Source: Bacteroidota bacterium (GTDB taxonomy: Bacteria; Bacteroidota; Ignavibacteria; UBA10030). From it: DNA of 64,000 nt. Position 1 is the first letter of the stretch, and every line of letters starts with the position of its first letter. The stretch spans positions 1,432-65,431 of the forward strand of contig DAOOUW010000003.1 in assembly GCA_035390885.1 (NCBI GenBank), given 5' to 3'. The notes below the pieces were generated by a model, which saw only the letters and a list, made by a program, of their open reading frames with translations, did not search any database and was not told where the DNA came from. Positions 7,705-40,865 of the stretch are shown here, piece by piece. Both the position numbers and the translations under genes were made by a program.

Positions 7705-7714
7705 AATTTTTCCT

Positions 7715-15662: not shown

Positions 15663-15804
15663 ACTGAACCCTTTGTGATATTGTAAATTCAAAAGAGAAA
15701 AATCAATTCCAAGCCCAAAACAAATGACTTCTACTTTTATAATTTGTAAAAGATTATCCTCTTGTGCAAAGATTATTCTTCTTCAATATATACAATAATG
15801 ATAG

Positions 15805-18375: not shown

Positions 18376-18387
18376 GATTGTCTTTCT

Positions 18388-20016
18388 TTATTTTAATAAG
18401 ATCATCGTTTTGGAAATTTTTCTTTCTTCTATTTGTAGCTCATATACATAGAATCCAGACGGCAAGGTTTTACCATCAAAAGTAGCTGTATTCTTGCCAG
18501 CTGGACGCATTCCTTCTACCAATGTTCTCACCTGCTGTCCAAGAACGTTGTAGACTTTAAGTGCAACAAATGCCGAATGCGGTAACTCAAATTCAATTGT
18601 TGTTGTAGGATTGAATGGGTTTGGAAAATTTTGTGCAAGATTAACTTTTTCCGGATATCCGCTCTGAGTTAAATTCCCAACGCTCGTTAATGTGCTTTCT
18701 CCAACAAGACCATTGAGATATTCTTCCAGCATGGTATATCCTGCAGAAGAAATTGTATTGCGATCTGTTGAATCATTTGGATTGAGTCCATGAGCTCGTT
18801 CCCATTCATCTGGCATTCCGTCTTTGTCGCTATCTGTTGGCGCAGGGGCGCTTGCCAGTAAAGGCCAGCCGCCTTCAGGTTGGCTATCCAGTGAATCAAT
18901 AGAATGTCCCGTTCGATTGAGTACATCGCTGATAATTCTTCGATCTATTGTATCTCGTTTTGGAAAACTTGCTCCAGCGCTTGCAAGCACATCATCGAAC
19001 GCTTGTTGCGGTGAGGTAGTAGTGACGGGTTCCATCGGAATAAGCGCTGAACGAGCTTTATAGGCGTTCTTTCGTTCTGTTGTAAATTTACTCCCCCATT
19101 GTACTAAACTCCATTGATCAGCAGGAATATTCCCGTTGTACATATTGTCTGCAAAATAGGCATAGGCTCTGTAAGCATCCTCTTTGAATGCTATTCCTGA
19201 AACGCTCGATTCGGTACCGGGTATATAAACATTACCGATAAAATTATAATGGCTTATCGAAGCTGTGTCGGCATTGTATCCCGGGGAAGTACCTTTCCAA
19301 TTATAAACAACATTATTTCTGAAATCGAAATACAATCCTATCGTATCCGTTGGATAATTGGTGTAATTCCCGGGACGTGGAAGACGATTATTGTTATGTG
19401 CATAGAGATTATGATGATAAGTTTTCTGATCGCCATAATCGCCTCTTACCAGCGAACCATAACTATGACTCTCAAAAGTCAAGGCTTCACTAATCAGACA
19501 CCATTGCACTGTAACTTTATCAGATTTTTCCTGGCAAGAAATTCCTTCATCACGCGCATAGGATGCTGTTACATGATCAACAATGATGTTAGAGCCACTT
19601 TCTATATCAACGGCATCACCTGAAGAATTGGCAGCGCCAGCGTCAACTCGAACACGAATGTACCGAATTACCACGTTCGAGGCGCTAATTTGGATCCGAC
19701 CTTTAAGACAAATACCATCGCCGGGTGCTGTTTGACCCGCAATGGTTGTATTCGATTTTGGTTTTAAGATAACGCTACCGAGTGAAATTGTACCGGATAC
19801 TTGAAATACAATTGTACGATTTCCTTGACTCACGGCATCGACGATCGAACCAGCCCCACTGTTATTCAAATTGGTTACGATATACACGTTCCCACCGCGT
19901 CCGCCCGTTGCAAACCTTCCGCTTCCCTCCGCAGAAGGAAATGCGACTTGTTGAGAGTAAAGATGTACAAAAAGGAACATTATAAGACAGCTTATCTTAA
20001 GGAATAATTTCTCCAT
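18388..20016 (-). CDS. Pectate lyase (PL1-like) with Ca-binding TSP3-like linker and T9SS C-terminal domain
   Basis: FPSAEGSGRFATGGRGGNVYIVTNLNNSGAGS, DAVDIESGSNIIVDHVTASYARDEG and NNRLPRPG. The linker is DSDKDGMPDEWE. The CTD is LAQNFPNPFNPTTTIEFEL...GFYVYELQ. Confidence 0.85.
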   Translation of the reverse strand: MEKLFLKISCLIMFLFVHLYSQQVAFPSAEGSGRFATGGRGGNVYIVTNLNNSGAGSIVDAVSQGNRTIVFQVSGTISLGSVILKPKSNTTIAGQTAPGDGICLKGRIQISASNVVIRYIRVRVDAGAANSSGDAVDIESGSNIIVDHVTASYARDEGISCQEKSDKVTVQWCLISEALTFESHSYGSLVRGDYGDQKTYHHNLYAHNNNRLPRPGNYTNYPTDTIGLYFDFRNNVVYNWKGTSPGYNADTASISHYNFIGNVYIPGTESSVSGIAFKEDAYRAYAYFADNMYNGNIPADQWSLVQWGSKFTTERKNAYKARSALIPMEPVTTTSPQQAFDDVLASAGASFPKRDTIDRRIISDVLNRTGHSIDSLDSQPEGGWPLLASAPAPTDSDKDGMPDEWERAHGLNPNDSTDRNTISSAGYTMLEEYLNGLVGESTLTSVGNLTQSGYPEKVNLAQNFPNPFNPTTTIEFELPHSAFVALKVYNVLGQQVRTLVEGMRPAGKNTATFDGKTLPSGFYVYELQIEERKISKTMILLK

Positions 20017-20081
20017 CGCTTGCTCGCTTTCCTGACTGAACTTAAAATATACAATGAGTTACTATGAAGCTATTGGCTACA

Positions 20082-21356
20082 TCACCGAATGGTAAAATGC
20101 CACAGCGTTCCCGGAATTGTATCGGTTGGCGTAATTTCATCAACTCGCCAATAGTACGTTGTATGAGGCTCGAGTTTCTCAGTATTAAAAACTGGAACAT
20201 CTTGCTCGTCAATAAAATTAAGCGCCGGTGGTTTGATGGAATATTTGGGAGCTTTACCTAAATATATCCGAAACGATTTTGCATTCCTCGATGGAAGCCA
20301 GCGAAGTTGTACCTGAGATTGCGAAAGATATACTCCATTACGAGGCGAGGGCATAGAAACAAAGGGAAGCGCCCGAGGCAATGAATTTTCTGGATCCCAT
20401 TGACCATCGAAAGTCCATTTTGCTGTTACGTCTTCTGGTTTTGGTGAACCTTCGGCAGCGCTAAGATTATCAGCAAACCAATCAAAATCTCCGCCAATTC
20501 TATGGCAATTGTAATAATAATGACGTGCGCCCCATTTCCATGGTCCGCTGGTCGTTGTCGGTGGATAGTAAATTGGAATGTCTGCCATTGTATTTGAAAA
20601 AATACAATCGAGCAAATAAATTTGCCCATCACGATGATTTCTGCCGAGAGGAAAGTTTGGCACTCCATCAAAGTATGAGTACCGTATCACAAACTTCTGC
20701 TTCTTGTTCGCACTTCCATCGTGCCAAATTGATGCGCTCAAGTTATGACCGTAAAACCGAGAATCGGTTATGTAGCACCATCCGCGTGGACAGACATAAT
20801 CGACCCATCCTTCAAAATAACAATTCGCATGATAATACATTCCATCTTTTCTATTCCAGAGGCTCACTGTATCTGCTCCATCCGCAATGACGTTACAATT
20901 GAGAAGAATGATTCGTGTACCATTTCCGTAAATTGCAAACTGATGATCGTGGATGCCGTGCAGCGCGCCATAATTATTGTAGATGGTTAAATTTGCAAAT
21001 GTAAGATCGTGGACAGAAGAATCAATATTCACTACAGCGCAGCCAAAATCATCATTTCCATGTTCTTTGCTCCATTCGCTTCGAAGCTGAGCAAATACTA
21101 TCCGGGTACTATCTCTATCTTCTCCAACAATGGCAATATTGCTCTTCTTTATCAGAAGCTTTTCGTTATATGTACCATTCTTTACAAGAATAACAATTAG
21201 ATTCTCATGCTGTTGAGGCGCTGCATCTAACGCTTGTTGAATCGAAGTATACTGACCGCTTCCATCTTTTGCTACAATGATATCCGCACGTTCATAGCCC
21301 ATTGCACAATTCATTAGCAATAAGCACATGAAAACCAACTTCCATAATGGTTTCAT
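20082..21356 (-). CDS. Pectin methylesterase (CE8-like, divergent) with C-terminal Ig/Fn3-like domain
   Basis: IIVAKDGSGQYTSIQQALDAAP is the classic CE8 N-terminal motif. QFAIYGNG, ADGADTVSLW and VDYVCPRGW sit where QAVAL, QDTL and DFIFG are expected. Signal peptide present. Confidence 0.7.
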   Translation of the reverse strand: MKPLWKLVFMCLLLMNCAMGYERADIIVAKDGSGQYTSIQQALDAAPQQHENLIVILVKNGTYNEKLLIKKSNIAIVGEDRDSTRIVFAQLRSEWSKEHGNDDFGCAVVNIDSSVHDLTFANLTIYNNYGALHGIHDHQFAIYGNGTRIILLNCNVIADGADTVSLWNRKDGMYYHANCYFEGWVDYVCPRGWCYITDSRFYGHNLSASIWHDGSANKKQKFVIRYSYFDGVPNFPLGRNHRDGQIYLLDCIFSNTMADIPIYYPPTTTSGPWKWGARHYYYNCHRIGGDFDWFADNLSAAEGSPKPEDVTAKWTFDGQWDPENSLPRALPFVSMPSPRNGVYLSQSQVQLRWLPSRNAKSFRIYLGKAPKYSIKPPALNFIDEQDVPVFNTEKLEPHTTYYWRVDEITPTDTIPGTLWHFTIR

Positions 21357-21428
21357 AACATTCTATAACCTTTCTCCACCCTAAACTTTAATACTATCGC
21401 ACTAAACCATGGCGCTTCATAAATTTTA

Positions 21429-23078
21429 TTATTTGATAATGATCGCTTCGTTCGTTGCTCCATTTGTAACTTCGAAAGCCTTCTTTGCGTTTTTTGCATC
21501 TTGTTGTGAAATACGAATATCTCTGGTTCCGGTTCCCTCTGCTCGGACATAAAGACTCGTTCCTTCCGGGAATGAAATCTTTTGAGCGTCAACTCCTTGT
21601 ACATTTCGCACCGTCAGAACAGGAGATTGTTTAAATCGAAGATCAATATTCGTGAATTGAATATTCTGTGCATCTTGCAAAATAATTGCACGATCGGCTA
21701 TGAGTGTAGCATTCGTTAGAGCGATGTGGTTCACTGGACGATCGACAAGTCCCTCCATTCGTACTCCGATTGATGCTCCATCGCAACGAATATTATTCAT
21801 CGTAATGTTACGGAACTCTGGCACTCTGGACTTATCGCTAACATCCACCGTAGTATCGCCGCCGTACGACATATCAAACAGTATTGCTTCTTTCGAAATA
21901 TCTTTCATCCATACTCCATCAATGACAATGTTTTCAACAAGTCCGCCTCGACCTCGCGCCGACTTGAAGCGTAATCCAACATCAGTCCAGATGCACGTAA
22001 GATTTCGAACATTGATGTTCCTTGCATTTCCATACGACTCGCTCCCTATGACAAATCCTCCGTGAGCATGGTACACGATGCAGTCTGCGATAATAATATT
22101 TTCACAGGCAGGTAAGTCTTTTGTTTTACGATTTGGCACACCAGGCTTTACACAAATTCCATCATCTCCTGCGTTTACTACGTTATTGTACACAAGTACA
22201 TTTCTGCACGATGATAAATCGATTCCATCGCCATTCTGCGCCCACCATTCATTATTGAGCGACATATTCCGAATAATAACATCCGAACATTGTGTAGGGT
22301 GGACTGTAAACTTTGGTGAATTAACAAACACCGGTCCATCGATAAGAATTGTTGAACAGTCATAGAACACAAGCAAGTCTGGTCTTACGTATTCTTTCGT
22401 AGCAACATAATCAGCTGAATCTAATTTTTTCTTTTGAGCTCGAAGATTCTCAAGATACTTAGGAGCATCGAGTGCAGCTTGCGATGGCATCCATAATGTT
22501 CCATCTTTACTTACTGCTCCTCCTGACTCCACAAGTTTTTTCCACTGATTGGGTGGCAGTTTCTCTTTTTTCACAGGATGCCAGTATTGTCCATTTCCAT
22601 TGAACACGCCTTTTCCTGTAATTGCAATATTATTCAATTGTTCACCGTAGATTAAGGACATTCGAGAGTACGATGAGCTTCCTGCTCTTCGAATAAAAGG
22701 CGTATCATCGATGTTCGGTGAGAATACCACAACAGCGCCTTGTTCCAGATGCAGATCGACATTGCTCTTCATCAATATTGGACCTGTCAGCCACAATCCC
22801 GGAGGAATGATGACTCTTCCACCGCCTTTTTTGGCAATGGCTTCGATAGCATTATTGATAGCCGCAGTGTTCATCGCAATTCCATCGCCGACTGCGCCAT
22901 AATCTGTAATTGACACTGTTACATTTGGAATTTGTGGTAACGGCGCTTTTGGCATATCAAAATTTAATTTTTCATAATAACGATCAGGAACTTGCTCATA
23001 CGGAATAAATCCCTGAGCATTGCAAAATAAAAATGGCGCTACTATTGCAATAAGTAGAGCTTTATTGAGTCTCTTCAT
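21429..23078 (-). CDS. GH28 polygalacturonase, secreted
   Basis: NGDGIDLSSC, AGDDGICVK, HGGFVIGSE and RFKSARGRGG are GH28 signature blocks. Signal peptide MKRLNKALLIAIVAPFLFCNAQG. Start placed at ATG 23078. Confidence 0.9.
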   Translation of the reverse strand: MKRLNKALLIAIVAPFLFCNAQGFIPYEQVPDRYYEKLNFDMPKAPLPQIPNVTVSITDYGAVGDGIAMNTAAINNAIEAIAKKGGGRVIIPPGLWLTGPILMKSNVDLHLEQGAVVVFSPNIDDTPFIRRAGSSSYSRMSLIYGEQLNNIAITGKGVFNGNGQYWHPVKKEKLPPNQWKKLVESGGAVSKDGTLWMPSQAALDAPKYLENLRAQKKKLDSADYVATKEYVRPDLLVFYDCSTILIDGPVFVNSPKFTVHPTQCSDVIIRNMSLNNEWWAQNGDGIDLSSCRNVLVYNNVVNAGDDGICVKPGVPNRKTKDLPACENIIIADCIVYHAHGGFVIGSESYGNARNINVRNLTCIWTDVGLRFKSARGRGGLVENIVIDGVWMKDISKEAILFDMSYGGDTTVDVSDKSRVPEFRNITMNNIRCDGASIGVRMEGLVDRPVNHIALTNATLIADRAIILQDAQNIQFTNIDLRFKQSPVLTVRNVQGVDAQKISFPEGTSLYVRAEGTGTRDIRISQQDAKNAKKAFEVTNGATNEAIIIK

Positions 23079-23170
23079 TTTATTTCCTTTCACCAATAAT
23101 GACAGATTACACACGCACTAACAAATCAAAATCGATAATATGCTCAATGCTTAAAAATGCAATTCGCCGC

Positions 23171-24697
23171 TTAATATATTTTTGGCGCTTCGCTTAACAA
23201 CCATCGAAACATGGCAACCCCAGCATCCCAGTTTTCATATCCCTCCGGCAATCGCCGATTGTCGAAATATTCATTATAGAGCCATGGATCGCCAACGGCA
23301 ACAACACATCCTTTTCCATATCGAGCGGTTGCCATCACTATAATACCATTTGCGGTCAATAATGGTTTTGCCGGCGGTTGTGTTTTCAACGATGAAACTT
23401 CTTTGATAAAAATATGATCGACACCCTTGAACGCAGGATGTTTCGGAAATTTTGTTATCCTTCCCATATCATAATTATCGTTCTTCACCATAAAGTTATT
23501 ATCTTCGTTGAAATGAATTCCGAACTCAGTTGCAAGTTTATTAAGATGCTCGAATTCACAATTCCCATTATCATTCGCTAACAAAACAAGCCTACCGCCT
23601 TGTTCCACCCATCGTTTAATAACTGCAATATCAGCGTCAGAAATTATATGTGGTTCTTTCGTCTCCTTCGGCGTATCTGGATCAACAATGATGTAAACAC
23701 TAAAATGCCTTAGCACAGAATCAGTTGGAGGAGATTGTAGCGTGTCGAGATCTGCGCCCAGCCAATCGATAACACGACCCAACTGGGAGAATCCACTATT
23801 CGTGGTGTCTTCCCAGATATAGTGATATCGCTCAAGTGAATCTTTTCCTTTTACTGGTCTCCATTCATTATTGAAGTAATAGTCTAAGCCAACTACTTTT
23901 CCAGCGCCAACAAACGGTGAAGCTGGAAGCTCGACGAGCTCCTTTGCTAATGGCAATTTAAGTTCTTTGATCCCATCTACTACAATTTGCGCCATTTGGA
24001 AAGCGCCAGTTCTTGTAAAATGCGTATGATCTTTCTTTTTATTCCAATTCCTGAATTGACCATCCTGAACGCCTGCAAGATATAACGGCCGAGATTTTAC
24101 TTCGCCTAATCCTCCAACGAGTTCCTTTGATTTTTCAAATACATCGATCAGAGGCGCGTTTTCTTCAGTGGCAACTTCTTTCATTGCAGCAGGATAATCA
24201 TAATGCGTTGCTATAAATTCTCCTTTTTCATTAAAATCATGTCGTATAACCGGCGTCAGCAAAATAGGAATGGCTTGTTTTTCACGAGACTCTCGAATAA
24301 ACTTTCTCAGGTTTTCTTTGTAATCTGGTCTCGCTGGCGCATACCGATTTGGGTCTTCCTTCTTTGCATCGTTATGCCCAAATTGAATAAAGACATAATC
24401 GCCAGGCTGCAACTGGTCGTAGATTACCTGCCATCTGCCTTCATCAATAAAACTTTTTGTACTCCTGCCATTGCGTGCATGGTTGTACACGGTAACGTTC
24501 TTAGAAAAAAACATCGGGAATATCTGTCCCCATCCATGCTCTGGATTATCAACTAATGGTTTGTCAGCCATCGTTGAATCGCCGATAAGGAATATACGGA
24601 TATGATTTTTTTGTGGAGCTTGAGCGACAAACGCACAAAGGAGTGAAATAAGCAGCACGCTGAGGATAATTGATTTTATATTCGGTATTCTATTCAT
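23171..24697 (-). CDS. SGNH/GDSL esterase (CE12 rhamnogalacturonan acetylesterase-like) fused to a ~250-aa C-terminal domain of unknown function
   Basis: IFLIGDSTMADK is the SGNH block I. Also GWGQ, QFGHND and DHTHFT. Start at ATG 24697, preceded by GGAGGAAATT. The C-terminal half (YYFNNEWRP... to the end) is a separate domain. Confidence 0.75.
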   Translation of the reverse strand: MNRIPNIKSIILSVLLISLLCAFVAQAPQKNHIRIFLIGDSTMADKPLVDNPEHGWGQIFPMFFSKNVTVYNHARNGRSTKSFIDEGRWQVIYDQLQPGDYVFIQFGHNDAKKEDPNRYAPARPDYKENLRKFIRESREKQAIPILLTPVIRHDFNEKGEFIATHYDYPAAMKEVATEENAPLIDVFEKSKELVGGLGEVKSRPLYLAGVQDGQFRNWNKKKDHTHFTRTGAFQMAQIVVDGIKELKLPLAKELVELPASPFVGAGKVVGLDYYFNNEWRPVKGKDSLERYHYIWEDTTNSGFSQLGRVIDWLGADLDTLQSPPTDSVLRHFSVYIIVDPDTPKETKEPHIISDADIAVIKRWVEQGGRLVLLANDNGNCEFEHLNKLATEFGIHFNEDNNFMVKNDNYDMGRITKFPKHPAFKGVDHIFIKEVSSLKTQPPAKPLLTANGIIVMATARYGKGCVVAVGDPWLYNEYFDNRRLPEGYENWDAGVAMFRWLLSEAPKIY

Positions 24698-24731
24698 AAT
24701 TTCCTCCAATCTACATTAGTTCTAATTACAC

Positions 24732-24757
24732 AAAACGCACCTCAAAGGGTGCGTTTT
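24732..24757 (-). terminator. Perfect 10-bp hairpin, bidirectional terminator candidate separating the transport genes from the CAZyme genes
   Basis: AAAACGCACC (24732-24741), loop TCAAAG, GGTGCGTTTT (24748-24757). The A and T runs are on either side, and it lies between the stop at 24785 and the start at 24697. Confidence 0.7.
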
Positions 24758-24784
24758 GAATGGAAATATAAATTGAATTTGAGG

Positions 24785-25441
24785 TTAGAAGGTTCCACGG
24801 AAACCTACTGTCAATGGAATATAGTAAAGCGTTCCGCCATCTGTGTTGGCGACATCAACGCCAACCTGAATAAACATTGCAGAGTTTTCACCGCCAATAA
24901 TATCAACGCCAACCGCTGCCGTTCCGCAGGCCACATTGCTATTTTTAAATGATGCAACATAGTTTGAGTTGGCATCTATAAGCACATAAATTTTATCGCT
25001 TGCGAGATTCATAATACCAGCGCTGGCGGTAACATAAGGATATACTTTTTCGATTGGTTCATACGGGAAACGATACCGAGCGCCAACATATGCAGCTACA
25101 GTGTTAAATTCAGCATCCTGAACATACGTGCCTGAAGGTAAATGCAATTGCTTTAATACCATACTTTTATTGATAGAAAATGAGCTATAGCTGACCTTCA
25201 AATGTCCTGTCAATTCAGGAAGAAATGCATACTCGAATCCTGCTGTAAGATTGAATCCATTGTTCCAACAATCATTGAATTTATAAAGCGTTGTCGTGTT
25301 AAAATATTTCGACATTGCATTATCGCTGAATGGTACCGATAACCCGCCTCCAAGCGTCAACGATACATTTTTAAACGTTGACTGAGAAAACGCGAAGGCA
25401 GGAAGAATTATTAACGATAGAAGAATAACTAATTTTCTCAT
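24785..25441 (-). CDS. Small outer-membrane beta-barrel protein (OmpW/porin-family-like)
   Basis: Signal peptide MRKLVILLSLIILPAFAFSQ, alternating hydrophobic beta-strand pattern, C-terminal ...VGFRGTF. Confidence 0.65.
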   Translation of the reverse strand: MRKLVILLSLIILPAFAFSQSTFKNVSLTLGGGLSVPFSDNAMSKYFNTTTLYKFNDCWNNGFNLTAGFEYAFLPELTGHLKVSYSSFSINKSMVLKQLHLPSGTYVQDAEFNTVAAYVGARYRFPYEPIEKVYPYVTASAGIMNLASDKIYVLIDANSNYVASFKNSNVACGTAAVGVDIIGGENSAMFIQVGVDVANTDGGTLYYIPLTVGFRGTF

Positions 25442-25501
25442 AGAATAACTTCCTTCTTAATTAATGAAGATCATTTCCCAAACAATTGATATTTATTGTA
25501 A

Positions 25502-27088
25502 TCATTCCCAAAAAGTTGGTATTATATACGATACACTTACTATCAAATTCTGAACAATTTTCTTATTGACGCTTGCTGAGTTAGACCATGTATCTGTATA
25601 TCGTCTATCAGAATATTCATACGCAACATTGAGTGTTGCACCAAAACCTGAAACACCTAAACCAATGGAGTAAACAGGGTATCGAACACTTTTTCCTCGC
25701 AAAGGATTAGTCGCCGGTTGAAATACATCCCCAATCTCACTAACGCCTGCGCGCAGAGACATCCATTTTACAGGTGCATACTCTGCACCAATCTTTATTA
25801 CCGAGTAAGAAAGCCATGGATTGGTATCGGAAACATCGTTATTATAGGTTGCCGACTCATAAGGAAGTATTTCGTATTCAAATCCAAGGACAATGTTTTT
25901 TCTTAAAGCAGCGGAAATACCAATGGAGCCACTAAATGGCAATTTCATCTTATCTTTCCCATGAATAGAGGTATTAGTTACCGCATGGGCTGAATCAATC
26001 TTGCCATTGTTATATGATGTAATTGTAGAATCTTTCCATAATGTATAAGAATAATCACGTGTAATTGTGGTAGGAGGTTTTAAGGTAAATCCAACAGTGA
26101 GAAATGGAGATTTATATGTGCTGCTAATGGTAAAATCGTACCCCGAATAGGTTGATTTTCCGACCTTTCTCCAACTTGTCATTCCGACCTTATCTAATCG
26201 AATAGAGCTGTAATAAAATAACGCTCTACCTCTACCCACACACACTTCCTCGTCATCTGTTTCTCCATCTAGATACATTCCACTTATTCCCACTGAAAAT
26301 TTTGGCGAAATCTCTATTGAAATTGCGCCGCCATATCCATAGATAGAGCCATTTCTATATTGAGAATATTGATACCATTGAACCGGCAATGGTCGTTTTG
26401 TTGGTGTTGCAGTAGAATCGGCTGTTGGCAATAAGCTCATTTGCCATTGGCTTATCCCATGCGCAACATCAAGAACGTTTGGAGAAAGCGTGTTATTATT
26501 TTGGTAAAACCAATTCAAGTTTGCATATTCGACAGCCCCAATTCCAACAACAATGTGATAATTGGCAAGTTTGAACGGCGCAGTAATAAATGCTTGCAAA
26601 GGAAGTGAAACATTCTTCGACCTATCCCAATTTGGCATTATAGTATCAAAAGGCCTTTGAATTGAATCTGCTTGAGTCGGTGTTTTCCCTTTTTGGATGA
26701 GAGAATCATAATAAGCGCTTGGTCGATCAGGAATTTTTGTCCGATCCAATAACGTTCCATCCAAAAGCAACATAAATTGTTCATGAGATTGCAATGTACC
26801 ATAATGCTTTTCTTGCTTTTGATCAATGTACTGTTGATAACCGCCCAGTGAAATTTGCAAACCCTTGACCGTAGTTAATAATGCCGGGCTTTGAAACATA
26901 ATCGATGGATCGTTTTGAATTCCAAACAAGATTCCACCAGCTCCACGTGACACTACTGACTGATTTGTCCTGTAATTCAAACCCTGCATTTGAAGAGCTG
27001 TTCCTTCTTGAGCCATTATATCTTCATTGCTTATAAGTATATTGGCCACAATAATTATCAGCGTAAAAATATAATTATTCCGTTTCAT
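25502..27088 (-). CDS. Outer-membrane beta-barrel protein, FadL/PorV-superfamily-like
   Basis: Signal peptide ending in ...IMAQEG and amphipathic beta pattern throughout. Its start overlaps the upstream stop (TAATG at 27086-27090). Confidence 0.55.
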   Translation of the reverse strand: MKRNNYIFTLIIIVANILISNEDIMAQEGTALQMQGLNYRTNQSVVSRGAGGILFGIQNDPSIMFQSPALLTTVKGLQISLGGYQQYIDQKQEKHYGTLQSHEQFMLLLDGTLLDRTKIPDRPSAYYDSLIQKGKTPTQADSIQRPFDTIMPNWDRSKNVSLPLQAFITAPFKLANYHIVVGIGAVEYANLNWFYQNNNTLSPNVLDVAHGISQWQMSLLPTADSTATPTKRPLPVQWYQYSQYRNGSIYGYGGAISIEISPKFSVGISGMYLDGETDDEEVCVGRGRALFYYSSIRLDKVGMTSWRKVGKSTYSGYDFTISSTYKSPFLTVGFTLKPPTTITRDYSYTLWKDSTITSYNNGKIDSAHAVTNTSIHGKDKMKLPFSGSIGISAALRKNIVLGFEYEILPYESATYNNDVSDTNPWLSYSVIKIGAEYAPVKWMSLRAGVSEIGDVFQPATNPLRGKSVRYPVYSIGLGVSGFGATLNVAYEYSDRRYTDTWSNSASVNKKIVQNLIVSVSYIIPTFWE

Positions 27089-28116
27089 TAGAATCCCACT
27101 CCTAAGCTAATTCGTTGGACATTCCCAAGGTGATACTTTAGACTTGCAAAGCTATAGTCAAACGCTAAGCGCATACCTCCAATATCTTGCTTCAAACCCA
27201 ATCCTGCAGTTAATCCTTCTGCATCATAATTGAATTTATACCCGCATCGTAACGCAACAAGCTTTGAAAATTCATATTCCAAACCTACATGTATTTGTTG
27301 ATCATAATCATTTGGATGTATGAGGTCGAATTCAACCCCCATTCTATTCTTCTCATTTTTTAACAACAACGCATCGGGTCCTATGAAGTTTGCGGCAATT
27401 CCTATACGGAAAATCATTGGCGTTGGGTGATTTTCTTTTGCATATTTAATATTTGGACCAAAATTCTGCACTGATGCTGCAAGTTCTATAGATCGAAACC
27501 CAGTTAAATAATGAATACCGTAATCAAATAACACATCTTCACCCCATGTTTTTACCTTAGCAGTATCAGAAGCATCACTTACAACTACAATTTCATCCTT
27601 ATCATAAAGCGATTCTCTTGCATACTTAACGCCAAGGCCAGTTGAAAACTTATCGGTAATCTTGGTAGCGTAACTGATGCCAACGACGTAACTATAGGGG
27701 CGGAACGTCCTCCCGGTTAATCCCGGTGTATTTAAGTCGTTTTTATATGGATCCCCCCATACTGCTTCCTCAATCTCACCATAATCAATATACTGCAACT
27801 GAATACCAAGTGAACCGAAACCTCGGAAGGAGCGTGATATCGACATCGCCCCTTGTTGGGTATCGAAAATCCATTGGAGATAGGTCATGGACAACTCTGT
27901 CCCTTGAGTATAAGCCACGCCAGCGGGGTTCCAAAAGATTGCTTCTGCACCTCTTCCCAAGACAGTATATGCATCACCCATTGCATTTGCTCTAGCGACA
28001 GGCATAACTTTAAAAAACTGCATTGATGTACTGCCAACCTTCTGTGCCATCATACAAGTAGAGGTAATAATGGTGAGGGCAATAAGTGCGATAAATAATT
28101 GTGATCTCTTCTTCAT
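27088..28116 (-). CDS. PorV/PorQ-family-like outer-membrane protein
   Basis: The mature N-terminus GSTSMQFFKVMPVARANAMGDAYTV..GAEAIFWNPAG resembles PorV/PorQ (T9SS shuttle) family openings. The C-terminus ...ISLGVGF is typical of OM barrels. Confidence 0.6.
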   Translation of the reverse strand: MKKRSQLFIALIALTIITSTCMMAQKVGSTSMQFFKVMPVARANAMGDAYTVLGRGAEAIFWNPAGVAYTQGTELSMTYLQWIFDTQQGAMSISRSFRGFGSLGIQLQYIDYGEIEEAVWGDPYKNDLNTPGLTGRTFRPYSYVVGISYATKITDKFSTGLGVKYARESLYDKDEIVVVSDASDTAKVKTWGEDVLFDYGIHYLTGFRSIELAASVQNFGPNIKYAKENHPTPMIFRIGIAANFIGPDALLLKNEKNRMGVEFDLIHPNDYDQQIHVGLEYEFSKLVALRCGYKFNYDAEGLTAGLGLKQDIGGMRLAFDYSFASLKYHLGNVQRISLGVGF

Positions 28117-28134
28117 TGCTTTTTCATCCTTCCA

Positions 28135-30468
28135 TCAATGAATAATGACAAACTTACCATGTGCACGATCGCCTGTGTCTAGATCTTCAACAACAAAGAA
28201 ATAGACGCCAGATGCTATACGCTGGTTGTTGCGGGAAATCTGGAACCACTCCGTTGAATAAGTATCCGATCGATGCTCTATCGTTCCAACTAATTGTCCA
28301 CTGTATGAAAATATTCGAATGTTACTTCTCGAAGGCAGTCCATAAAAACATATCTTGTCGTGAATATCTCCCATCTTTGTTGAGCCGCCAAAATTCGATG
28401 CAACAATCAAGGGGTTGGGGGCAACATATACTTTACCCAATTTTGAGACCGCGCCTTTTTGTGTTTCATGATATGTAATATTTGTCCACCCGCTTTTTGT
28501 ACCTAATGAGTCGACTGTAAGTACTGCATAGTAATAATTTTCACTTATCAGGCTTGAGGTATCTCGTACTACATAACATCCCGGATAATTAACGTCAATA
28601 TTATAATATTGTGGAGCACGACGTGTGATACTATCAATAACTTTCCATGGACCGAGTGCATCAGGAGACTTAAGAACTAAGTAATGACTAAACCCTGAAC
28701 GTATTCTCCCTTGTACCGCTGTAGAGCTTTCAAAGTCCTCTACTGCTGTTGACCACACAATAATATTTTTAAAATCTGCCTGATTATGAACTTCAATTAT
28801 AGGACTCGGAAGTGGAATATAAGGAATTTGGTATACACCTTTTGCCGGTGATATTTCTGCTTTGTATTGTTCTGTATCATATTTTTTATATGGCTGACCA
28901 GTATAAATCTGAATAGCACGATCAGCAACCTGACGTAACGAAATTACAGGTTCTGGATCATCTGTTGAAATCTGTCCTGCCACATACCAGGGTAGTGGAT
29001 ATTTTTTTAAATAAGCGCTTCCCATATAGGGATAGTTTGCATGAATGCCGGGGTAAGTTATTGAATCGTACCAACTCACAACTGGCTTGTACCAACCTGT
29101 TGACTGCCCGCTTGGCTCTGTAGAAGCTCCACCTGCATCACGGAGCACAGTATCTGCAGCTGTTCCAGGTCCATAGCCAACCAATTGAGCAATAGCAAAC
29201 CGTACTGGTACTCCTGGCTTAAATACGTATGGGCCAAATGATGTATAATGGAGAGTAGTTTGTGAATAATTACCATTACTCAACGCACGAGGTTTTGCTC
29301 GCCCATGCCAATACTTCATAAGTTCTAGATTTTTTGCGGCATCGATTGATGCATAAGGATAATTAAAATTTGCCCAACTAGTAGAATCAGCTGAACCAGC
29401 CTTCATATCGAAGGCTGAGTATGGACGACTCAACGACAAATCTAACATAGCTCCAATTTGAGTGTCGTAAAGCGCCCGGTTTCTATTTGGAATTTGTTGC
29501 GTAACATAAGGCTGACGGAATTTACCAAGTTCGTCCCAAACTCGAGTACTATCGGTTCCGCTATATAACGTTCTCCATTGTGGTTGAAGTTGCGTCGTAT
29601 CATAATGCAAAACCATATATCCAACAGCTTGAGGCGCGTTTAATCCTCCACGATTTCCTTCTGTAGACCACACATTAAAATACTTTTCTTCCGGGAAACC
29701 ATTTCTTGTATGGACATAAGATAAATACCGTGTAAAATTATAGCGTGCATAAATTTCTTTTGAACGAGTGGTATTTGAACCCTCTTGCCATAATCCACCG
29801 TATTTTCTTTCCATCCCAAACGCTGAAGGTGCAATTGCTGCCCCAAAGACAACAAAACCATCAGGATATTCAATAGTATCTATATTCACAATTTCATATT
29901 CAATAATGACAAACGCATCATAACCACGATACCCCCATGCACGACTTGTCTGTTTTACTTCTAGCTTCATTGGTTCAATTGTTTGGTATTTTGCAATAAT
30001 AATCTCTTCAGCTTCATTTGGGTCATAGTTAGGATTTAATGTCCCATCTTCAAGAATTGGATAATTCTCTTTACGTGAAATTCCAATGGCTTTAACATAT
30101 ACATCTTCAATCTGGATAGTTCCACCACTTCCATCTCCCATAATACCACATGCTCGGCGCACTTTTTGTCCATCAATTGTTGCACTTAAAAGAACACCAG
30201 CGCCAAACGAATTATGATGTCCCAGATATTCAAAGTTATCCAAAAAGATATTGCCTTCTGAAGGGGGCCATTCCCACGAAGATGTCTTCTTCGTAATACC
30301 TACCTCTTGTGCATTGCTCGCATTGAATGGCCTGCCTATTTCACCGGTATAATACATAGTTTGGCGTAGTAGGCTTCTTACGTGAGTTTTATATCGTAAG
30401 CTCTGTTGTGCAAAAGCTGACATCGCACAAATACTCAATAAAATCATTACTATGTTAATTCTTTTCAT
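28135..30468 (-). CDS. 777-aa secreted protein of unknown function with T9SS-type C-terminal domain
   Basis: Signal peptide MKRINIVMILLSICAMSAFAQQ with no lipobox Cys. No catalytic motif recognised. The C-terminal ~90 aa (KVYVAPNPL...IRIFSYSGQLV...ASGVYFFVVEDLDTGDRAHGKFVIIH) look like a Por_Secre_tail/FlgD-Ig CTD. Confidence 0.6.
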   Translation of the reverse strand: MKRINIVMILLSICAMSAFAQQSLRYKTHVRSLLRQTMYYTGEIGRPFNASNAQEVGITKKTSSWEWPPSEGNIFLDNFEYLGHHNSFGAGVLLSATIDGQKVRRACGIMGDGSGGTIQIEDVYVKAIGISRKENYPILEDGTLNPNYDPNEAEEIIIAKYQTIEPMKLEVKQTSRAWGYRGYDAFVIIEYEIVNIDTIEYPDGFVVFGAAIAPSAFGMERKYGGLWQEGSNTTRSKEIYARYNFTRYLSYVHTRNGFPEEKYFNVWSTEGNRGGLNAPQAVGYMVLHYDTTQLQPQWRTLYSGTDSTRVWDELGKFRQPYVTQQIPNRNRALYDTQIGAMLDLSLSRPYSAFDMKAGSADSTSWANFNYPYASIDAAKNLELMKYWHGRAKPRALSNGNYSQTTLHYTSFGPYVFKPGVPVRFAIAQLVGYGPGTAADTVLRDAGGASTEPSGQSTGWYKPVVSWYDSITYPGIHANYPYMGSAYLKKYPLPWYVAGQISTDDPEPVISLRQVADRAIQIYTGQPYKKYDTEQYKAEISPAKGVYQIPYIPLPSPIIEVHNQADFKNIIVWSTAVEDFESSTAVQGRIRSGFSHYLVLKSPDALGPWKVIDSITRRAPQYYNIDVNYPGCYVVRDTSSLISENYYYAVLTVDSLGTKSGWTNITYHETQKGAVSKLGKVYVAPNPLIVASNFGGSTKMGDIHDKICFYGLPSRSNIRIFSYSGQLVGTIEHRSDTYSTEWFQISRNNQRIASGVYFFVVEDLDTGDRAHGKFVIIH

Positions 30469-30502
30469 ATCCTTATCCTACATAAATTATTTTATAGAAC
30501 TG

Positions 30503-33409
30503 TTAAAAATCTATTGCTATACCCAGATTGTATGAGCGTGGTGAATTACTATATAATAGAAATGAATGATCGACCGGATATGTTACATCCGACTCACCTG
30601 GATAATTATCCCAATAGAGTGCACCACGAGTTATGTTCTCAAGCGGATACGATTCAAAGTTGGGCAATATTTGATTACCATCAACCTTGTTTTCACTATA
30701 GAAAATATAATTATAGTTATAAATCTTATTATCAAACAAATTAAACACTTCAAAGTAAAGAGTAGCTTTTGTTCCAAAGAATTTTGTAATTGTTTTTGAA
30801 ATGCGCATATCGGTATTGTATTCAGCAGGACTTCTATACTCATTAACAGCACCAAGATCTTTGGAAGAGGTGTAGGGACGACCGCTGCGTGCAAAACTCC
30901 TTACTGAAAATGCTGTCGATCCAAATGGATAAATACTCCCAAACTTCGGTCCCCAATTATCATCCGTCGCATACGTGAGTGTAGCAATTAAATTGTGTGT
31001 TCGATCGAAGTTTAACAATACGTCACGAACAGGAACCTTTTGTAAATCTGTGGAACTTGTACCATCGTCATACCGAGTAACCACCCAAGGCGCATTTGTT
31101 GGTGATGCACTTTTTCCCGTAGCAACGCTATATTGATAATTTAACGATCCCGTTAAAGCTCCGCGCTTTTTACTTAGCACAACCCTGAAACCGCGAATAT
31201 CTGCATAGGCGCGATTAAAATAAGATTGAAATGAGACATTTGATTGCATCTGATCAACGATAGTGGCAACTTCAATTAAGTTCTTTACGTCTTTGTACCA
31301 GCCACTAACATCCACTGTAAATCCTTCACCCAGTCCCTGTATAATGCCGACGTCGTAACTATTGGTTGACTGCGGTTTCAGTGTTGAATTACCGATCATA
31401 TAAGGAAATTCTCCTTCTCTCGTTACCTGCACCCTGTTGCCAATCATATACTGAAACGGAGGTCTCTGAAGAAATACACCATAGTTCAAATGGAATACTG
31501 TTGAAACTGAAACAGGGAAGGATATACCAATACGTGGTTGTAATCTTCCAATAGGATTAGCTTTCGTTTTCGGCGCATTGTCAGGATCTTGTATTCCTCT
31601 CCCTGTCTCTTCATCAATTACCACAAAGTATGGATTGAAGAAGTTTTCGTAGTAATAGTTATTAGAATTCCATACATCCCAACGCAACCCAACTTTTGCA
31701 ATCATACCTTCAAATTCCATCTTATCTTGTAAATAAATTCCGGCTTCCCAAGGTTCGCCAGTATATTTTGTTTTTGATATACCGCCCATGGACTGAATGT
31801 TATAGACATTATCAACGCGCAAAAAATAGTAATTTGCTTGTATACCGCCATTAAGCATGTGTGAATTTGTGACCTGGCTAGTAAATGAAGCATCAAGCGA
31901 TATGGTTGCAGTTCTTTCATTAGAGAAGTTGCCCTGTGTATTTCCCAAGTAGGAAAACGTCTTATTTGTAAAACCATCAAAAGAGAATAATGAACCCGTA
32001 CGGAAAATTACACCGCTTCCAGTTTGAACATTTATTGCGTCGGGAATAATTGTATCATACCATGGAGTTGTACCAAGACGGTACTCTGTACGAAGTCCAT
32101 TAAGTTTAATATCATAAAATGTTTTAGCGCTAAGCGCTTTCGTATAGCGTAAACCAAACTGGTGGTTCATACGTTGACGGTATTGAATGCCAAGAATCCG
32201 ATCCCACATCCAGCCATAGAAACCTGTACCTCCAGAGAAATAATTCTCAAATTCATACTGATAGCCGCCGCTGACTTTGAACGCCGCACCTTGACCTAAA
32301 TCGAATGCAACATTTCCCATGACTTGCCTTTGCTCGTCAGGTTGTTGAGTTGGAAGTATAGGATTTTCTATATTCGACCTGAAAGCCATAAACATTGTAA
32401 CTCCCTCGTCAATCGGTCCTCCTGTAGCGCCTTCAACTGCATAATCAATCCGTTTTGTATAATCAGCATCTCCTTCACGAGCTACAATCTGATCCCAAAC
32501 GGCTTTACCTACCCTAGCTGTAAGCATAGTATCATTTGCGAAAAGCGAATTCACCCATTTAAAAAGTGCTTTCCCATCGTTCTTTTTCCCAAGCCAAAAT
32601 TCTTCATCTGCAAGGAGCATCATATATGGTTGCGCTTTAACATCAAAAATATTTGCTCCCCAATGTTTTTTACCCGGCAACCGCATTCGCGATTCAAAGT
32701 GTGAACGCCATTTATCTGACTTACCTTCTTTCATTGTAATGTTTACCACGCCCGATTGAGCATTCCCATATTGTGCGTCGAAGCCGCTTGTGATAACTTC
32801 AATTTCTTCAACCGCGCTAACAATTGGCAAAAATGCACTAGAGTTATCTAGAGGGTTATTAATGCCCATTCCTTGCAAAGTGTATAACTCTTCGTTTGTA
32901 CGCCCACCTCGAAAGTGCCCGTCTGTAACATCGGCGGCAAGTCCAATAACATCACCAACATCTCGTACACCTGCAAGAGATTGTACATCCTCCGGTCGTA
33001 CGATTGCACTCGTCGATGTTTTTTCTGGCTCGACGTCAGGACGCGTCGCTTCTACAACGATTGCTTCTTGCTCGATTGCTGTCTGTTTAAGATCAAAATT
33101 CAGCGTCGTCGTACGTCCTGAATTTACAATAACATCCTGCACAATGACTCGCTCGTATCCAATCATCGAAGCTTGTACTTCATATTTTCCAGCAGGAATA
33201 TTCAAGATAAAATAATTTCCATCAAGGTCAGAAGCTGCGCCAAGGCTCGTTCCACGAATTACAACATTCGCTCCAATGAGCGGCTCGCCAGTTTGAGCAT
33301 CCTTCACAACACCTGATATTTTCCCTCCGGTTTGTGCAGAGAGAATACTCAGCGTGCAACACAGAGCCACGCTAAGTATGAGCATTCTGTATATTACTCG
33401 TTTTGCCAT
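30503..33409 (-). CDS. TonB-dependent outer-membrane receptor with CarboxypepD_reg N-terminal domain
   Basis: GKISGVVKDAQTGEPLIGANVVIRGTSLGAASDLDGNYFILNIPAGKYEV is the carboxypeptidase-regulatory-like domain. A plug region follows (IVRPEDVQSLAG...RGGRTNEELYTLQGMGINNP). The barrel ends ...LGIAIDF. Confidence 0.88.
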   Translation of the reverse strand: MAKRVIYRMLILSVALCCTLSILSAQTGGKISGVVKDAQTGEPLIGANVVIRGTSLGAASDLDGNYFILNIPAGKYEVQASMIGYERVIVQDVIVNSGRTTTLNFDLKQTAIEQEAIVVEATRPDVEPEKTSTSAIVRPEDVQSLAGVRDVGDVIGLAADVTDGHFRGGRTNEELYTLQGMGINNPLDNSSAFLPIVSAVEEIEVITSGFDAQYGNAQSGVVNITMKEGKSDKWRSHFESRMRLPGKKHWGANIFDVKAQPYMMLLADEEFWLGKKNDGKALFKWVNSLFANDTMLTARVGKAVWDQIVAREGDADYTKRIDYAVEGATGGPIDEGVTMFMAFRSNIENPILPTQQPDEQRQVMGNVAFDLGQGAAFKVSGGYQYEFENYFSGGTGFYGWMWDRILGIQYRQRMNHQFGLRYTKALSAKTFYDIKLNGLRTEYRLGTTPWYDTIIPDAINVQTGSGVIFRTGSLFSFDGFTNKTFSYLGNTQGNFSNERTATISLDASFTSQVTNSHMLNGGIQANYYFLRVDNVYNIQSMGGISKTKYTGEPWEAGIYLQDKMEFEGMIAKVGLRWDVWNSNNYYYENFFNPYFVVIDEETGRGIQDPDNAPKTKANPIGRLQPRIGISFPVSVSTVFHLNYGVFLQRPPFQYMIGNRVQVTREGEFPYMIGNSTLKPQSTNSYDVGIIQGLGEGFTVDVSGWYKDVKNLIEVATIVDQMQSNVSFQSYFNRAYADIRGFRVVLSKKRGALTGSLNYQYSVATGKSASPTNAPWVVTRYDDGTSSTDLQKVPVRDVLLNFDRTHNLIATLTYATDDNWGPKFGSIYPFGSTAFSVRSFARSGRPYTSSKDLGAVNEYRSPAEYNTDMRISKTITKFFGTKATLYFEVFNLFDNKIYNYNYIFYSENKVDGNQILPNFESYPLENITRGALYWDNYPGESDVTYPVDHSFLLYSNSPRSYNLGIAIDF

Positions 33410-33459: not shown

Positions 33460-34815
33460 TTATTTTTTTGTATTCACAACAACGTTGATCAAATCAAAAT
33501 TTTTGACATTCTCAATGACATTTGGCTCGGCAACATTATCGAATTTACAATTCTCGATGTGAACATTCGTCGCAGGGGAATACCCAAACGCCCGTATCCA
33601 AATTCCATAATGGCTTTTCTCACAAACTACATCTCGAACATCAACATTCCTGACAATCGGCGTAAAAGAACCTTTATCAGCCTCTTCATAGTAAAAATCA
33701 ATTTTAATAACAGCTTCAGCAACTTGACCAACTTTGATATTTCTCATAAACACATTTTCAACAACGCCGCCGCGCATCGCATTCGTCTTAATTCTTAACG
33801 CACGATCGAGACTTGGACTGTCCATCACATTGTTTTCAATGAAGACGTTTCTCACACCGCCAGATATTTCACTTCCGATGGAAACACCTCCATGCCCATC
33901 GTTCATCGTACTATTCTCAACAATTATATTTTCGCAAGGGACATTGATTCTGCGCCCGTCGGCATTTCTGCCAGATTTGATCGCAATGCAATCATCGCCA
34001 TTCTTAAAGTAACAACCTCTGATAAGAACATCTTTACATGATTCGGGATCGATTCCATCATTGTTTGGACCCAAGCCAACCGTTTTTACATCAATAAAAG
34101 AGACATTAGTGCATAGCACCGGATTCAGAAACCACATTGGGGAATCCTTAAAAGTAACTCCTTCAACCAGAATATTCTTACATCGATATGGCTCAAAGAA
34201 ATTTGGTCGTAAATATGAGCCTTCGCCGCACACTCTTTTTTCTACTGGAACTCCTTGCTCAGCCATTTCAAAAAGTTTTTTCCGAGCATCTCGCTGACTT
34301 TGCAAATTTTTCCACTGCCACCAATTTGCATCGGAGGCTTGTCCATTCAAAACACCTTCGCCAGTAATTGCAATATTTTCCTGCTCCATTGCATAGATCA
34401 AGGGGGAATAATTCATACATTCCACACCTTCCCAGCGGCAAAATACTATAGGTAAATATTTCTTCGGATCTGTAAAAAACAGAATCTCCGCATCTTTCAT
34501 AATATGGAGATTGACATTGCTCTTGAGTACAATCGGACCTGTAAGATACTTGCCTGCAGGAACAATTACTCTACCACCGCCAGCTTTCGAACATGCTTCG
34601 ATCGCTTTTGCAAATGCTTTTGAGCAATCCTTTTTGCCATTGCCAACGGCGCCGTATTTCGTTACATCAAAATCTTTTGATGGAAAAGTTGGAGGAATGA
34701 TTTGTTTGAGGATAGTTTCTTTTGTTGACCAGTTAATATCTTGAGCTACAACAATACTACCAATAGTAACCACAGCAAAAATCATAATGGTTACTCTATT
34801 TATTTTTTTTATCAT
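33460..34815 (-). CDS. GH28 (exo-)polygalacturonase, secreted
   Basis: NNDGIDPESC, NGDDCIAIKSG, HGGVSIGSE and RIKTNAMRGG. N-terminal signal/anchor. Confidence 0.9.
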   Translation of the reverse strand: MIKKINRVTIMIFAVVTIGSIVVAQDINWSTKETILKQIIPPTFPSKDFDVTKYGAVGNGKKDCSKAFAKAIEACSKAGGGRVIVPAGKYLTGPIVLKSNVNLHIMKDAEILFFTDPKKYLPIVFCRWEGVECMNYSPLIYAMEQENIAITGEGVLNGQASDANWWQWKNLQSQRDARKKLFEMAEQGVPVEKRVCGEGSYLRPNFFEPYRCKNILVEGVTFKDSPMWFLNPVLCTNVSFIDVKTVGLGPNNDGIDPESCKDVLIRGCYFKNGDDCIAIKSGRNADGRRINVPCENIIVENSTMNDGHGGVSIGSEISGGVRNVFIENNVMDSPSLDRALRIKTNAMRGGVVENVFMRNIKVGQVAEAVIKIDFYYEEADKGSFTPIVRNVDVRDVVCEKSHYGIWIRAFGYSPATNVHIENCKFDNVAEPNVIENVKNFDLINVVVNTKK

Positions 34816-40653: not shown

Positions 40654-40865
40654 TTTACCTCCCACGAATGTGAACCAAAGTTCATCCGATCTTTGATTGA
40701 TTCGAATTTTATAGTAACCGTGTCTCCAAATATCAGAATAAACGAATGCCCGGTGAAATCGCTCATTTCTGCGCTTTCTTCTCGACATCGAGTGCGCGGA
40801 AAACTTGCTCCGATACCTGAGCATTCACTCTGAGCGCTACACAGCACAACATTGCAAAAAGAATC

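Follow-up and report, generated by a model that had tools for sequence, protein, structure and literature searches.

We analysed a 64-kb window of DNA (hereafter the window) from a Bacteroidota bacterium, in which a block of five minus-strand genes for outer-membrane and surface proteins lies among genes for pectin degradation. The block encodes a TonB-dependent transporter (TBDT), a protein of 777 amino acid residues (aa) that we call X, a barrel of the PorV/PorQ family and two further barrels. In the direction of transcription, the genes are as follows.

30503..33409, minus strand: TonB-dependent transporter, 968 aa, with signal peptide, CarboxypepD_reg, plug and barrel (Pfam/NCBIfam)
28135..30468, minus strand: protein X, 777 aa, with signal peptide, N-domain, FN3-like domain and PorZ-like C-terminal domain (CTD) (no Pfam family)
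27088..28116, minus strand: PorV/PorQ-family outer-membrane barrel, 342 aa (NF033709)
25502..27088, minus strand: FadL-superfamily-like barrel, 528 aa (BamG model, 51.4 bits, E 9e-14, cutoff 250)
24785..25441, minus strand: small beta-barrel, 218 aa (OMP_b-brl, 28.5 bits against a cutoff of 28.7)

The intergenic gaps, counted from the small barrel towards the transporter, are 60, -1, 18 and 34 nt; the negative value is a one-base overlap of the 342-aa and 528-aa genes at a TAATG stop/start at 27088. An AAGGAG Shine-Dalgarno sequence precedes the ATG of the receptor gene. The positions of the five genes, their tight packing and the TAATG overlap agree with an initial annotation of this DNA, made from the sequence alone, which had proposed that the block is a SusD-less uptake cassette. 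As described below, its conserved core is the triad of the TBDT, X (600–800 aa in the homologous loci) and the PorV/PorQ-family barrel.

X consists of a signal peptide and three domains.

28819..30399, minus strand: N-domain, residues 24–550, beta-rich (AlphaFold2 [AF2] model)
28444..28818, minus strand: FN3-like spacer, residues ~551–675 (full-length model, Foldseek)
28138..28443, minus strand: CTD, residues 676–777, PorZ-like subclass of type IX secretion system (T9SS) CTDs (PorZ model)

The signal peptide is cleavable and ends with A-x-A before Q-(R)-D. Signal peptides of the X family have no conserved Cys, and X is thus not a lipoprotein. No Pfam family, SusD included, matched X, and the Pfam and NCBIfam models of SusD matched neither X nor any other open reading frame (ORF) of at least 180 aa in the window. 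The only NCBIfam and PDB sequence match of X was that of its last ~100 residues to the C-terminal domain of PorZ.

Two AF2 models were made, one of full-length X with 30 sequences and the other of residues 24–550 with 76 diverse sequences. The full-length model was mediocre (pLDDT 65); it featured a confident FN3-like domain followed by the beta-sandwich of the CTD, and the Foldseek search with it was swamped by tandem FN3 domains. Pfam fn3 also matches the X paralogue of one homologous locus (L012; homologous loci are denoted by L numbers). The N-domain model was confident (pLDDT 93.7, pTM 0.94), with mostly beta structure and few helices. The full-length model had suggested that the conserved N-terminal 70 residues are disordered until they meet a partner; we dropped this idea, since the 76-sequence model folds them confidently. 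Foldseek comparison of the N-domain with the PDB gave best TMq values of 0.24–0.32, indicative of partial similarity, to GH94, GH149 and GH116 enzymes, dextran dextrinase, copper amine oxidases and one polysaccharide lyase (PL); no SusD, SusE/F or surface glycan-binding protein (SGBP) structure was among the 50 matches listed. As modelled, the N-domain is without a close structural relative; we propose that it forms the glycan-binding or the transporter-facing part of X.

X is neither SusD-like nor a recognisable carbohydrate-active enzyme (CAZyme): no known catalytic domain of the glycoside hydrolase (GH), PL or carbohydrate esterase (CE) families was found in it by Pfam, by NCBIfam outside the tail, by PDB profile search (PorZ CTD only) or by Foldseek (TMq ≤0.32). 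The description of X in the initial annotation as a protein unlike SusD, with no lipobox Cys and no TPR-like helical pattern, is borne out by the sequence scans and the beta-rich model, and neither sequence nor fold revealed homology to SusD or to a catalytic CAZyme. X has at least 319 close full-length homologues, of which the named ones come from metagenome-assembled genomes (MAGs) of Ignavibacteria/Ignavibacteriales, 'Bacteroidota' and KSB1. A profile search of 1.84 billion representative proteins retrieved 3536 clusters at E≤1e-3 and 1032 (50% identity) at E≤1e-10, most of them 600–840-aa proteins that have mainly the FN3-plus-CTD module in common. Near-invariant positions of the X family include several Asp, Glu, Arg and His residues. 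The N-domain represents a large family, of at least 1000 clusters at 50% identity, with no characterised member.

The tail is the best-conserved part of X. Among orthologues its identity is 59–77%, compared with 41–66% for the N-domain, and across substrate classes the values are 34–41% and 19–21%, respectively. In the PL1 and Pel9 proteins encoded nearby, identity is 34–52% for the sorting tail and 45–79% for the catalytic domain, and the tail was the less conserved part in six of seven comparisons. On the part of the PorZ model that covers the CTD, the X tail of the window scored 43 bits, and on the generic CTD model TIGR04183 it scored 19.9 bits (cutoff 23), with no match to PF18962; a few X homologues do carry PF18962 or PF13585. 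The type B model TIGR04131 matched none of seven X tails at E≤1. The full-length PorZ equivalog NF052228 was not reached, as only the last ~100 residues align (38.8–43.4 bits against a cutoff of 260), and the PDB and Foldseek matches of X to PorZ 5m11 were confined to the C-terminal region. Judged from its sequence, the tail is a homologous T9SS CTD of a divergent subclass; the T9SS-type CTD of the initial annotation is real, and it is atypical and PorZ-like.

To evaluate the PorZ likeness quantitatively, we scanned 59 non-redundant tails of X and of its counterparts in divergent triads (X') against NCBIfam at E≤1e-3, with 59 ordinary cargo tails from the same loci as controls. The X tails matched the PorZ CTD in 56 cases, TIGR04183 in 40 and PorU in 13, whereas the control tails matched TIGR04183 in all 59 cases, PorU in 38 and PorZ in two. 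The controls had been selected for their likeness to two generic CTDs, so it is in the number of PorZ matches that the comparison is informative. We rejected likeness to the PorU tail as support for retention, since ordinary cargo matches PorU more often (38/59 versus 13/59); thus, only the PorZ signal discriminates. PorZ of P. gingivalis retains its CTD and is held on the cell surface by the PorQ barrel (PMC10202324), and a review raises the possibility that such CTDs are shielded from cleavage by cognate PorV-like barrels (PMC10202324). From the PorZ-like subclass of the tail, its conservation and the strict adjacency of the two genes (see below), we infer that the X tail is retained and docked in its own barrel.

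The 342-aa barrel scored 207.4 bits on the PorV/PorQ family model NF033709 (cutoff 90) and 40.7 bits on Pfam PorV (cutoff 27), in agreement with its earlier assignment to this family. It fell below the cutoffs of both equivalogs, PorV (NF033710, 83.6 bits against 250) and PorQ (NF033711, 88 bits against 220), and its partner is X, not PorZ. Its sole solved relative by sequence is F. johnsoniae PorV (6h3i_F, E 2e-9). One contig bears two complete paralogous four-gene cassettes (L082 and L084), with 41–54% identity between their components, and one MAG has both a pectin-type (L009) and a GH5-type (L012) triad. These duplications, together with the equivalog scores, show that the barrel is not the single housekeeping PorV of its genome. 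Each cassette has its own barrel, which co-diverges with its X and TBDT. We propose, on the basis of these sequence relationships, that the 342-aa barrel is the docking partner of the X tail. As a separate observation, pectin-type barrels have an insertion of ~19 residues (DEIVVVSDASDTAKVKTWGE in the window; alignment columns ~205–225) that is absent from the other triad subfamilies and may be a subfamily-specific loop.

The receptor has a CarboxypepD_reg extension at residues 31–119 (71 and 67 bits), a TonB-box-like sequence, EAIVVEATRP, at residues 115–124 (33038–33067), and a C-terminal F. NCBIfam TBDT models align to its plug region (residues 186–252) and barrel (residues 674–722). Pfam finds Plug, TonB_dep_Rec_b-barrel or OMP_b-brl_3 in its orthologues (49–69% identity; the two barrel families at 49–50%), and Plug in triad receptors that are more distant as well. 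These features, taken together, identify it as a genuine TonB-dependent transporter. A comparison of its barrel with PDB sequences returned nothing useful. On the SusC/RagA model TIGR04056 it scored 50.5 bits against a cutoff of 368.25, and the N-terminal domain alone aligned. The CarboxypepD_reg-plug-barrel organisation, or 'Oar architecture', accounts for 28% of TBDTs and dominates in Bacteroidetes, SusC-type importers included (PMC6434023), so that CarboxypepD_reg is not diagnostic of SusC. The initial annotation had called this N-domain typical of the SusC/RagA lineage; the domain is confirmed, and by the NCBIfam model the receptor is not a member of the SusC/RagA family.

We examined the conservation of the gene order by contig look-ups with X homologues at 43–64% identity and by scans with the barrel. 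The pectin-type set comprises 15 places reached via X or the barrel (L001–L011 and L014–L016), some of which represent one locus more than once. Wherever the contig extends far enough, the genes are arranged as TBDT, X, PorV-like barrel, FadL-like barrel (~500 aa). Genes for Pel9, CE8, GH28, UxaE, GH88 and PL proteins accompany these cassettes, and wherever Pfam or BLAST annotated the flanks of a pectin-type orthologue, these contained pectinases. The whole block of the window, the small barrel included, has a syntenic counterpart in L014. L012 and L013, the first paralogous triads to be recognised, came from a single-sequence contig scan with the PorV-like protein, which yielded seven loci. 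A metagenome scan that started from an alignment of PorV-like proteins yielded at least 552 confirmed matches, of which the best 80 loci were examined. Among these, an X-like gene adjoins the barrel gene in 62 of 62 loci with sufficient upstream sequence, and a TBDT gene lies immediately upstream of X in 43 of 43 testable loci. One of the 62 (L099, 2732–9114) has the permuted order TBDT, PorV-like, X and still keeps the triad. Thus, of the five-gene cassette described in the initial annotation, the triad, or four genes in some subfamilies, forms a conserved unit; the fifth gene does not belong to it.

The divergent triads, in which all three proteins are ~25–40% identical to those of the window, lie beside other enzyme sets, for instance:

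L012: triad beside GH5 and CBM96/F5-8C proteins
L013: triad beside GH39 with CBM96
L018: triad beside GH38, an ABC sugar transporter, lyxose isomerase and PfkB
L100 (Melioribacteraceae MAG): triad beside GH106, GH39 and RbsD/FucU

In 15 further loci, the 62 flanking ORFs include those for PL6-type chondroitinase B (4), sulfatases (4) and heparinase II/III (2), as well as GH88, GH109, DUF5123/DUF4957, KDPG aldolase, and GntP and DctP transporters. The neighbourhood search across relatives that had been suggested with the initial annotation therefore shows the unit recurring next to different CAZymes. Among the sources of X' that carry a name are KSB1, Melioribacteraceae and Calditrichaeota. With the FN3 domain and tail removed, the N-domains of X and X' proved to be homologous (hhalign 99.9%, E 2e-31, 362 columns), and this homology across substrate classes speaks for a shared role in structure or binding more than for catalysis.

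A second cassette was seen directly upstream of the KSB1 pectin triad (L004/L005, 491–6635). A TBDT (996 aa) is encoded there together with a generic-CTD protein of 552 aa and a PL1-like protein; this cassette is without a PorV-like barrel and may be another SusD-less design.

The genes beyond the triad are more variable. The 528-aa barrel scored 51.4 bits on the BamG model, below the cutoff of 250, its orthologues gave faint Toluene_X matches, and a search of PDB sequences found nothing. BamG is a FadL-family barrel that anchors BamH (PMC12611786, PMC12578637); given the weakness of the match, the protein is FadL-like at the superfamily level only, and the FadL assignment of the initial annotation holds weakly at that level and fails at the family level. 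In 51 of 58 loci from the best 80, the PorV-like gene is followed directly downstream by a FadL-like gene; it is kept in the pectin-type and one related subfamily and is missing from L012-type triads. By analogy with BamG, the 528-aa barrel is possibly a second anchor or scaffold. An orthologue of the 218-aa barrel was seen only in L014 (63% identity). In other genomes the fifth position is taken by CTD proteins instead, which makes the small barrel a lineage-specific addition.

In most four-gene cassettes, a protein of ~470–570 aa is encoded after the FadL-like barrel:

L001, 14768-16363
L006, 14847-16442
L008, 8671-10263
L009, 12486-14129
L078, 8179-9591
L079, 9866-11584
L080, 5792-7507
L090, 12484-14169
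L096, 11279-12937

Where scanned or BLAST-matched (L001, L006, L008, L009 and L078, the last also with DUF5123), this protein has a generic T9SS tail. In the second subfamily, a protein of ~1350–1500 aa often follows. The protein encoded at the fifth position might have the FadL-like barrel as its partner.

We interpret the cassette as a SusD-less polysaccharide-utilisation module, in which the TBDT would work with a surface protein, X, that is tethered by its tail to a barrel dedicated to it; we put the probability of this reading at about 0.55. X would be exported by Sec, as follows from its cleavable non-lipoprotein signal peptide, and would then cross the outer membrane by the T9SS. Unlike ordinary cargo, it would keep its PorZ-like tail, docked in the cognate barrel as the PorZ tail is in PorQ, and the docked tail would tether X on the cell surface beside the transporter. 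The N-domain, carried on the FN3-like spacer, would bind pectic oligosaccharides freed by the secreted PL1, PL9 and GH28 enzymes, and X would hand them to the transporter for TonB-powered import, as a functional analogue of SusD or an SGBP. In pectin-type cassettes the FadL-like barrel might serve as a further scaffold or anchor, by a weak analogy with the anchoring of BamH by BamG. The same triad, with co-diverged components, would serve other glycans at other loci. The initial annotation had suggested that a T9SS-delivered protein and its PorV-like partner replace SusD; the architecture, a conserved SusD-less triad, stands, and the function is read from gene context. More tentatively, at a little short of even odds, we consider this a widespread design in Ignavibacteria-like Bacteroidota, KSB1 and Calditrichota, in which a beta-rich, T9SS-exported binder permanently docked in a private barrel replaces SusD.

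Several points weigh against the proposed working of the module. Glycan binding, complex formation and CTD retention are all inferred from sequence and gene context. The T9SS core genes are not in the window, and the presence of a T9SS is deduced from the three generic-CTD proteins encoded there. The role of the FadL-like barrel is unaccounted for by the model. The selection of the control tails biases that comparison set, and the match of 40 of the 59 X tails to the generic cargo model means that X could be processed as ordinary cargo. Finally, X could be an enzyme, in view of its near-invariant Asp, Glu, Arg and His residues and its weak matches to glycoside phosphorylases and hydrolases.

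The last point leads to the alternative that survives best, although we consider it unlikely: X would be an enzyme displayed on the cell surface and belonging to a CAZyme family not yet described, acting for example on oligosaccharides at the transporter mouth, with the barrel as its dedicated secretion or anchoring partner. Its sole, weak fold matches are indeed to glycoside phosphorylases, hydrolases and one polysaccharide lyase, many acidic, basic and aromatic residues are conserved, and the N-domain diverges with substrate class, down to 19–21% identity. TM-scores of 0.24–0.32, however, mean that only part of the domain is matched. GH94-type enzymes have an (alpha/alpha)6 catalytic barrel, which the beta-rich model with its few helices does not contain. 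Moreover, a homologous N-domain accompanies pectin, PL6/sulfatase-type, mannoside, rhamnoside and GH5/GH39 loci, and it is improbable that one catalytic fold would suit them all; the presence of one domain beside chemically unrelated glycan loci is suggestive, not conclusive, evidence that X is no enzyme. Its invariable place beside the transporter also mirrors that of SusD.

Next in rank, and likewise improbable, is that the barrel acts solely as a dedicated shuttle taking X from the T9SS translocon to the attachment complex, where the X tail is cleaved and X becomes lipid-anchored by A-LPS as other cargo does, and that no stable X-barrel complex forms. Shuttling is what PorV itself does (PMC10202324), the 40 X tails mentioned above match the generic type-A CTD model, and the barrel obtains similar scores from the PorV and PorQ models. 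A discarded signal, however, is expected neither to be the most conserved part of its protein nor to resemble the retained PorZ tail (56/59 versus 2/59 in ordinary cargo), and ordinary cargo of the same loci is without a private barrel.

Two other explanations can be dealt with briefly. That the transporter is Oar-like and serves the export or surface assembly of X instead of glycan import is very unlikely in our judgement: the receptor has the CarboxypepD_reg-plug-barrel architecture and fails the SusC/RagA model, and PopC secretion in Myxococcus requires Oar (PMC6434023), but the architecture is shared by 28% of TBDTs, SusC-type importers included, the T9SS-type tail already explains the export of X, and the loci are catabolic (CAZymes, sugar kinases, KDG-pathway genes and inner-membrane sugar transporters). 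Operonic hitch-hiking, with co-inherited genes acting independently as a generic porin/anchor set unrelated to the receptor, would fit the variable fifth gene, but is scarcely tenable against an adjacency (62/62 and 43/43) that persists over ~25–70% sequence divergence and across phylum-level groups, the co-divergence of all three components and the retention of the triad in L099 despite its permuted order.

The proposed tail-tethered module resembles the polysaccharide utilisation loci (PULs) built on SusC/SusD in that a TBDT with CarboxypepD_reg is encoded directly upstream of a substrate-class-specific surface protein, the pair lies among secreted and periplasmic CAZymes for one glycan, and there are many paralogous sets. 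Unlike those loci, the cassette has no SusD/RagB TPR lipoprotein; the partner is the all-beta, non-lipoprotein X with its T9SS-type tail, a PorV/PorQ-family barrel and often a FadL-like barrel are added, and the receptor fails the SusC/RagA model. With PorZ-PorQ and PorU-PorV it has in common the pairing of a CTD protein with a 14-stranded barrel of the PorV/PorQ family, and the likeness to PorZ extends to a specific match of the X tail to the CTD by which PorZ, which keeps it, is held by PorQ. X shares this tail only (39–43 bits against 260), with no match to the beta-propeller of PorZ, and the X-barrel pair, unlike PorZ-PorQ, lies next to a TBDT in catabolic loci and occurs as several paralogues in a genome. 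Of the principles already described, the nearest is that of type-B CTD cargo, such as SprB/SprF in Flavobacterium, for which a cognate PorP/SprF-like barrel is encoded adjacently (PMC10202324); the X gene likewise adjoins the gene for its own private barrel. The differences are that the X tail is type-A/PorZ-like, that the barrel is of the PorV/PorQ family, and that the context is a TBDT with CAZymes in place of gliding adhesins. BamG-BamH offers a parallel in that the FadL-family BamG is a membrane pillar for an extracellular protein, and the 528-aa protein weakly matches BamG. The latter is not a BamG orthologue, however, BamH is a lipoprotein, and the context here is catabolic, not outer-membrane biogenesis.

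Pairs of susCD are scarce in CAZyme clusters of Ignavibacteriales and absent in Kapabacteria (PMC10576277); some susCD tandems do occur in Ignavibacteriae (PMC5753385). Full-text literature searches found no description of a TBDT combined with a CTD protein and a PorV-like barrel, which agrees, as far as these searches show, with the earlier remark that no characterised system of this composition is known. TBDT-centred glycan utilisation with T9SS-type anchoring instead of a lipoprotein thus appears to be undescribed. PUL predictors (e.g. PULDB) key on susC/susD pairs and will therefore miss triad loci, and the missed triads may explain why CAZyme clusters of Ignavibacteriales and their relatives seem to be without outer-membrane uptake systems (PMC10576277). 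The triad signature (TBDT, PorZ-tailed X, PorV/PorQ barrel) would let uptake loci be annotated in abundant, mostly uncultured lineages of sediment, soil and bioreactors. For T9SS biology, the loci provide many natural pairs of a CTD and a private barrel, useful for working out the rules of CTD retention versus cleavage; for transport biology, the triad would be an independent solution to the problem solved by SusD. If the proposal is true, PorV/PorQ-type barrels have a second, non-secretory role as modular surface anchors, and this family of 'utilisomes' has diversified across many polysaccharides.

The cassette is surrounded by the following features.

33460..34815, minus strand: GH28, alpha-galacturonidase-like, first gene of the likely transcription unit (Pfam Glyco_hydro_28, 117.7 bits)
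24732..24759, minus strand: perfect hairpin, 11-bp stem and 6-nt loop (RNA energy -17 kcal/mol, z = -4.83)
23171-24709, minus strand: GDSL/pectin-acetylesterase-like protein (Pfam/NCBIfam scans)
21429-23114, minus strand: second GH28 (Pfam/NCBIfam scans)
20082-21356, minus strand: CE8 (Pfam/NCBIfam scans)
18388-20016, minus strand: PL1 with a generic T9SS CTD (Pfam/NCBIfam scans)
15973-18375, minus strand: Pel9-like protein with a generic T9SS CTD (Pfam/NCBIfam scans)

The upstream GH28 gene is separated from the receptor gene by 50 nt and occupies the same position in the syntenic locus L014; its product scored 369 bits on the NCBIfam BT4155-like model, below the cutoff of that model. The best sigma-70-like site, at 34936-34908 just upstream of this gene, agrees with the consensus at 11 of 12 positions and is a consensus match only; the promoter scan of the window was uninformative, with 66 promoter-like sites against 53 expected. 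At the other end of the block, none of 200 shuffled sequences folds as well as the hairpin, which closes the block and is terminator-like, but has no canonical U-tract after its stem and was not listed by the terminator scan. The initial annotation was right about the perfect stem and gave its extent as 24732-24757, two bases too short. The downstream pectinolytic set (15973..24709) is also syntenic in L014. Co-localised CAZymes for one glycan, by which SusC/SusD PULs are recognised, are found here in the form of two GH28 proteins, CE8, the GDSL esterase, PL1 and the Pel9-like protein. The remainder of the window consists of housekeeping genes.

Some further observations concern individual genes of the window. 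An extracytoplasmic function (ECF) sigma factor gene (35330-35947, minus strand) lies 2 nt downstream of the stop of a gene for a secreted-looking 1624-aa protein with ~10 PKD repeats (35950-40824, minus strand), upstream of which lies a histidine kinase gene (40866-42968, minus strand). The three could form a regulatory unit of the pectin locus; as the receptor has no STN domain, such an ECF unit would not represent classic trans-envelope signalling. The 1106-aa ORF at 11470-14790 (minus strand) has only a partial match to UDP-glucose pyrophosphorylase (UDPGP), at residues 887-1003, with its large N-terminal part unannotated, and is followed by a nucleotidyl transferase gene (14787-15692). 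At 57600-59344 and 63119-63862 lie ParB and ParA genes and the gene for a 247-aa protein with a generic T9SS sorting tail; the former place the window possibly near the chromosomal origin, and the latter indicates that T9SS cargo exists outside the pectin locus too. A DUF6599 protein gene adjoins that of an aldo/keto reductase fused to a 4Fe-4S dicluster domain (5664-7755, minus strand).

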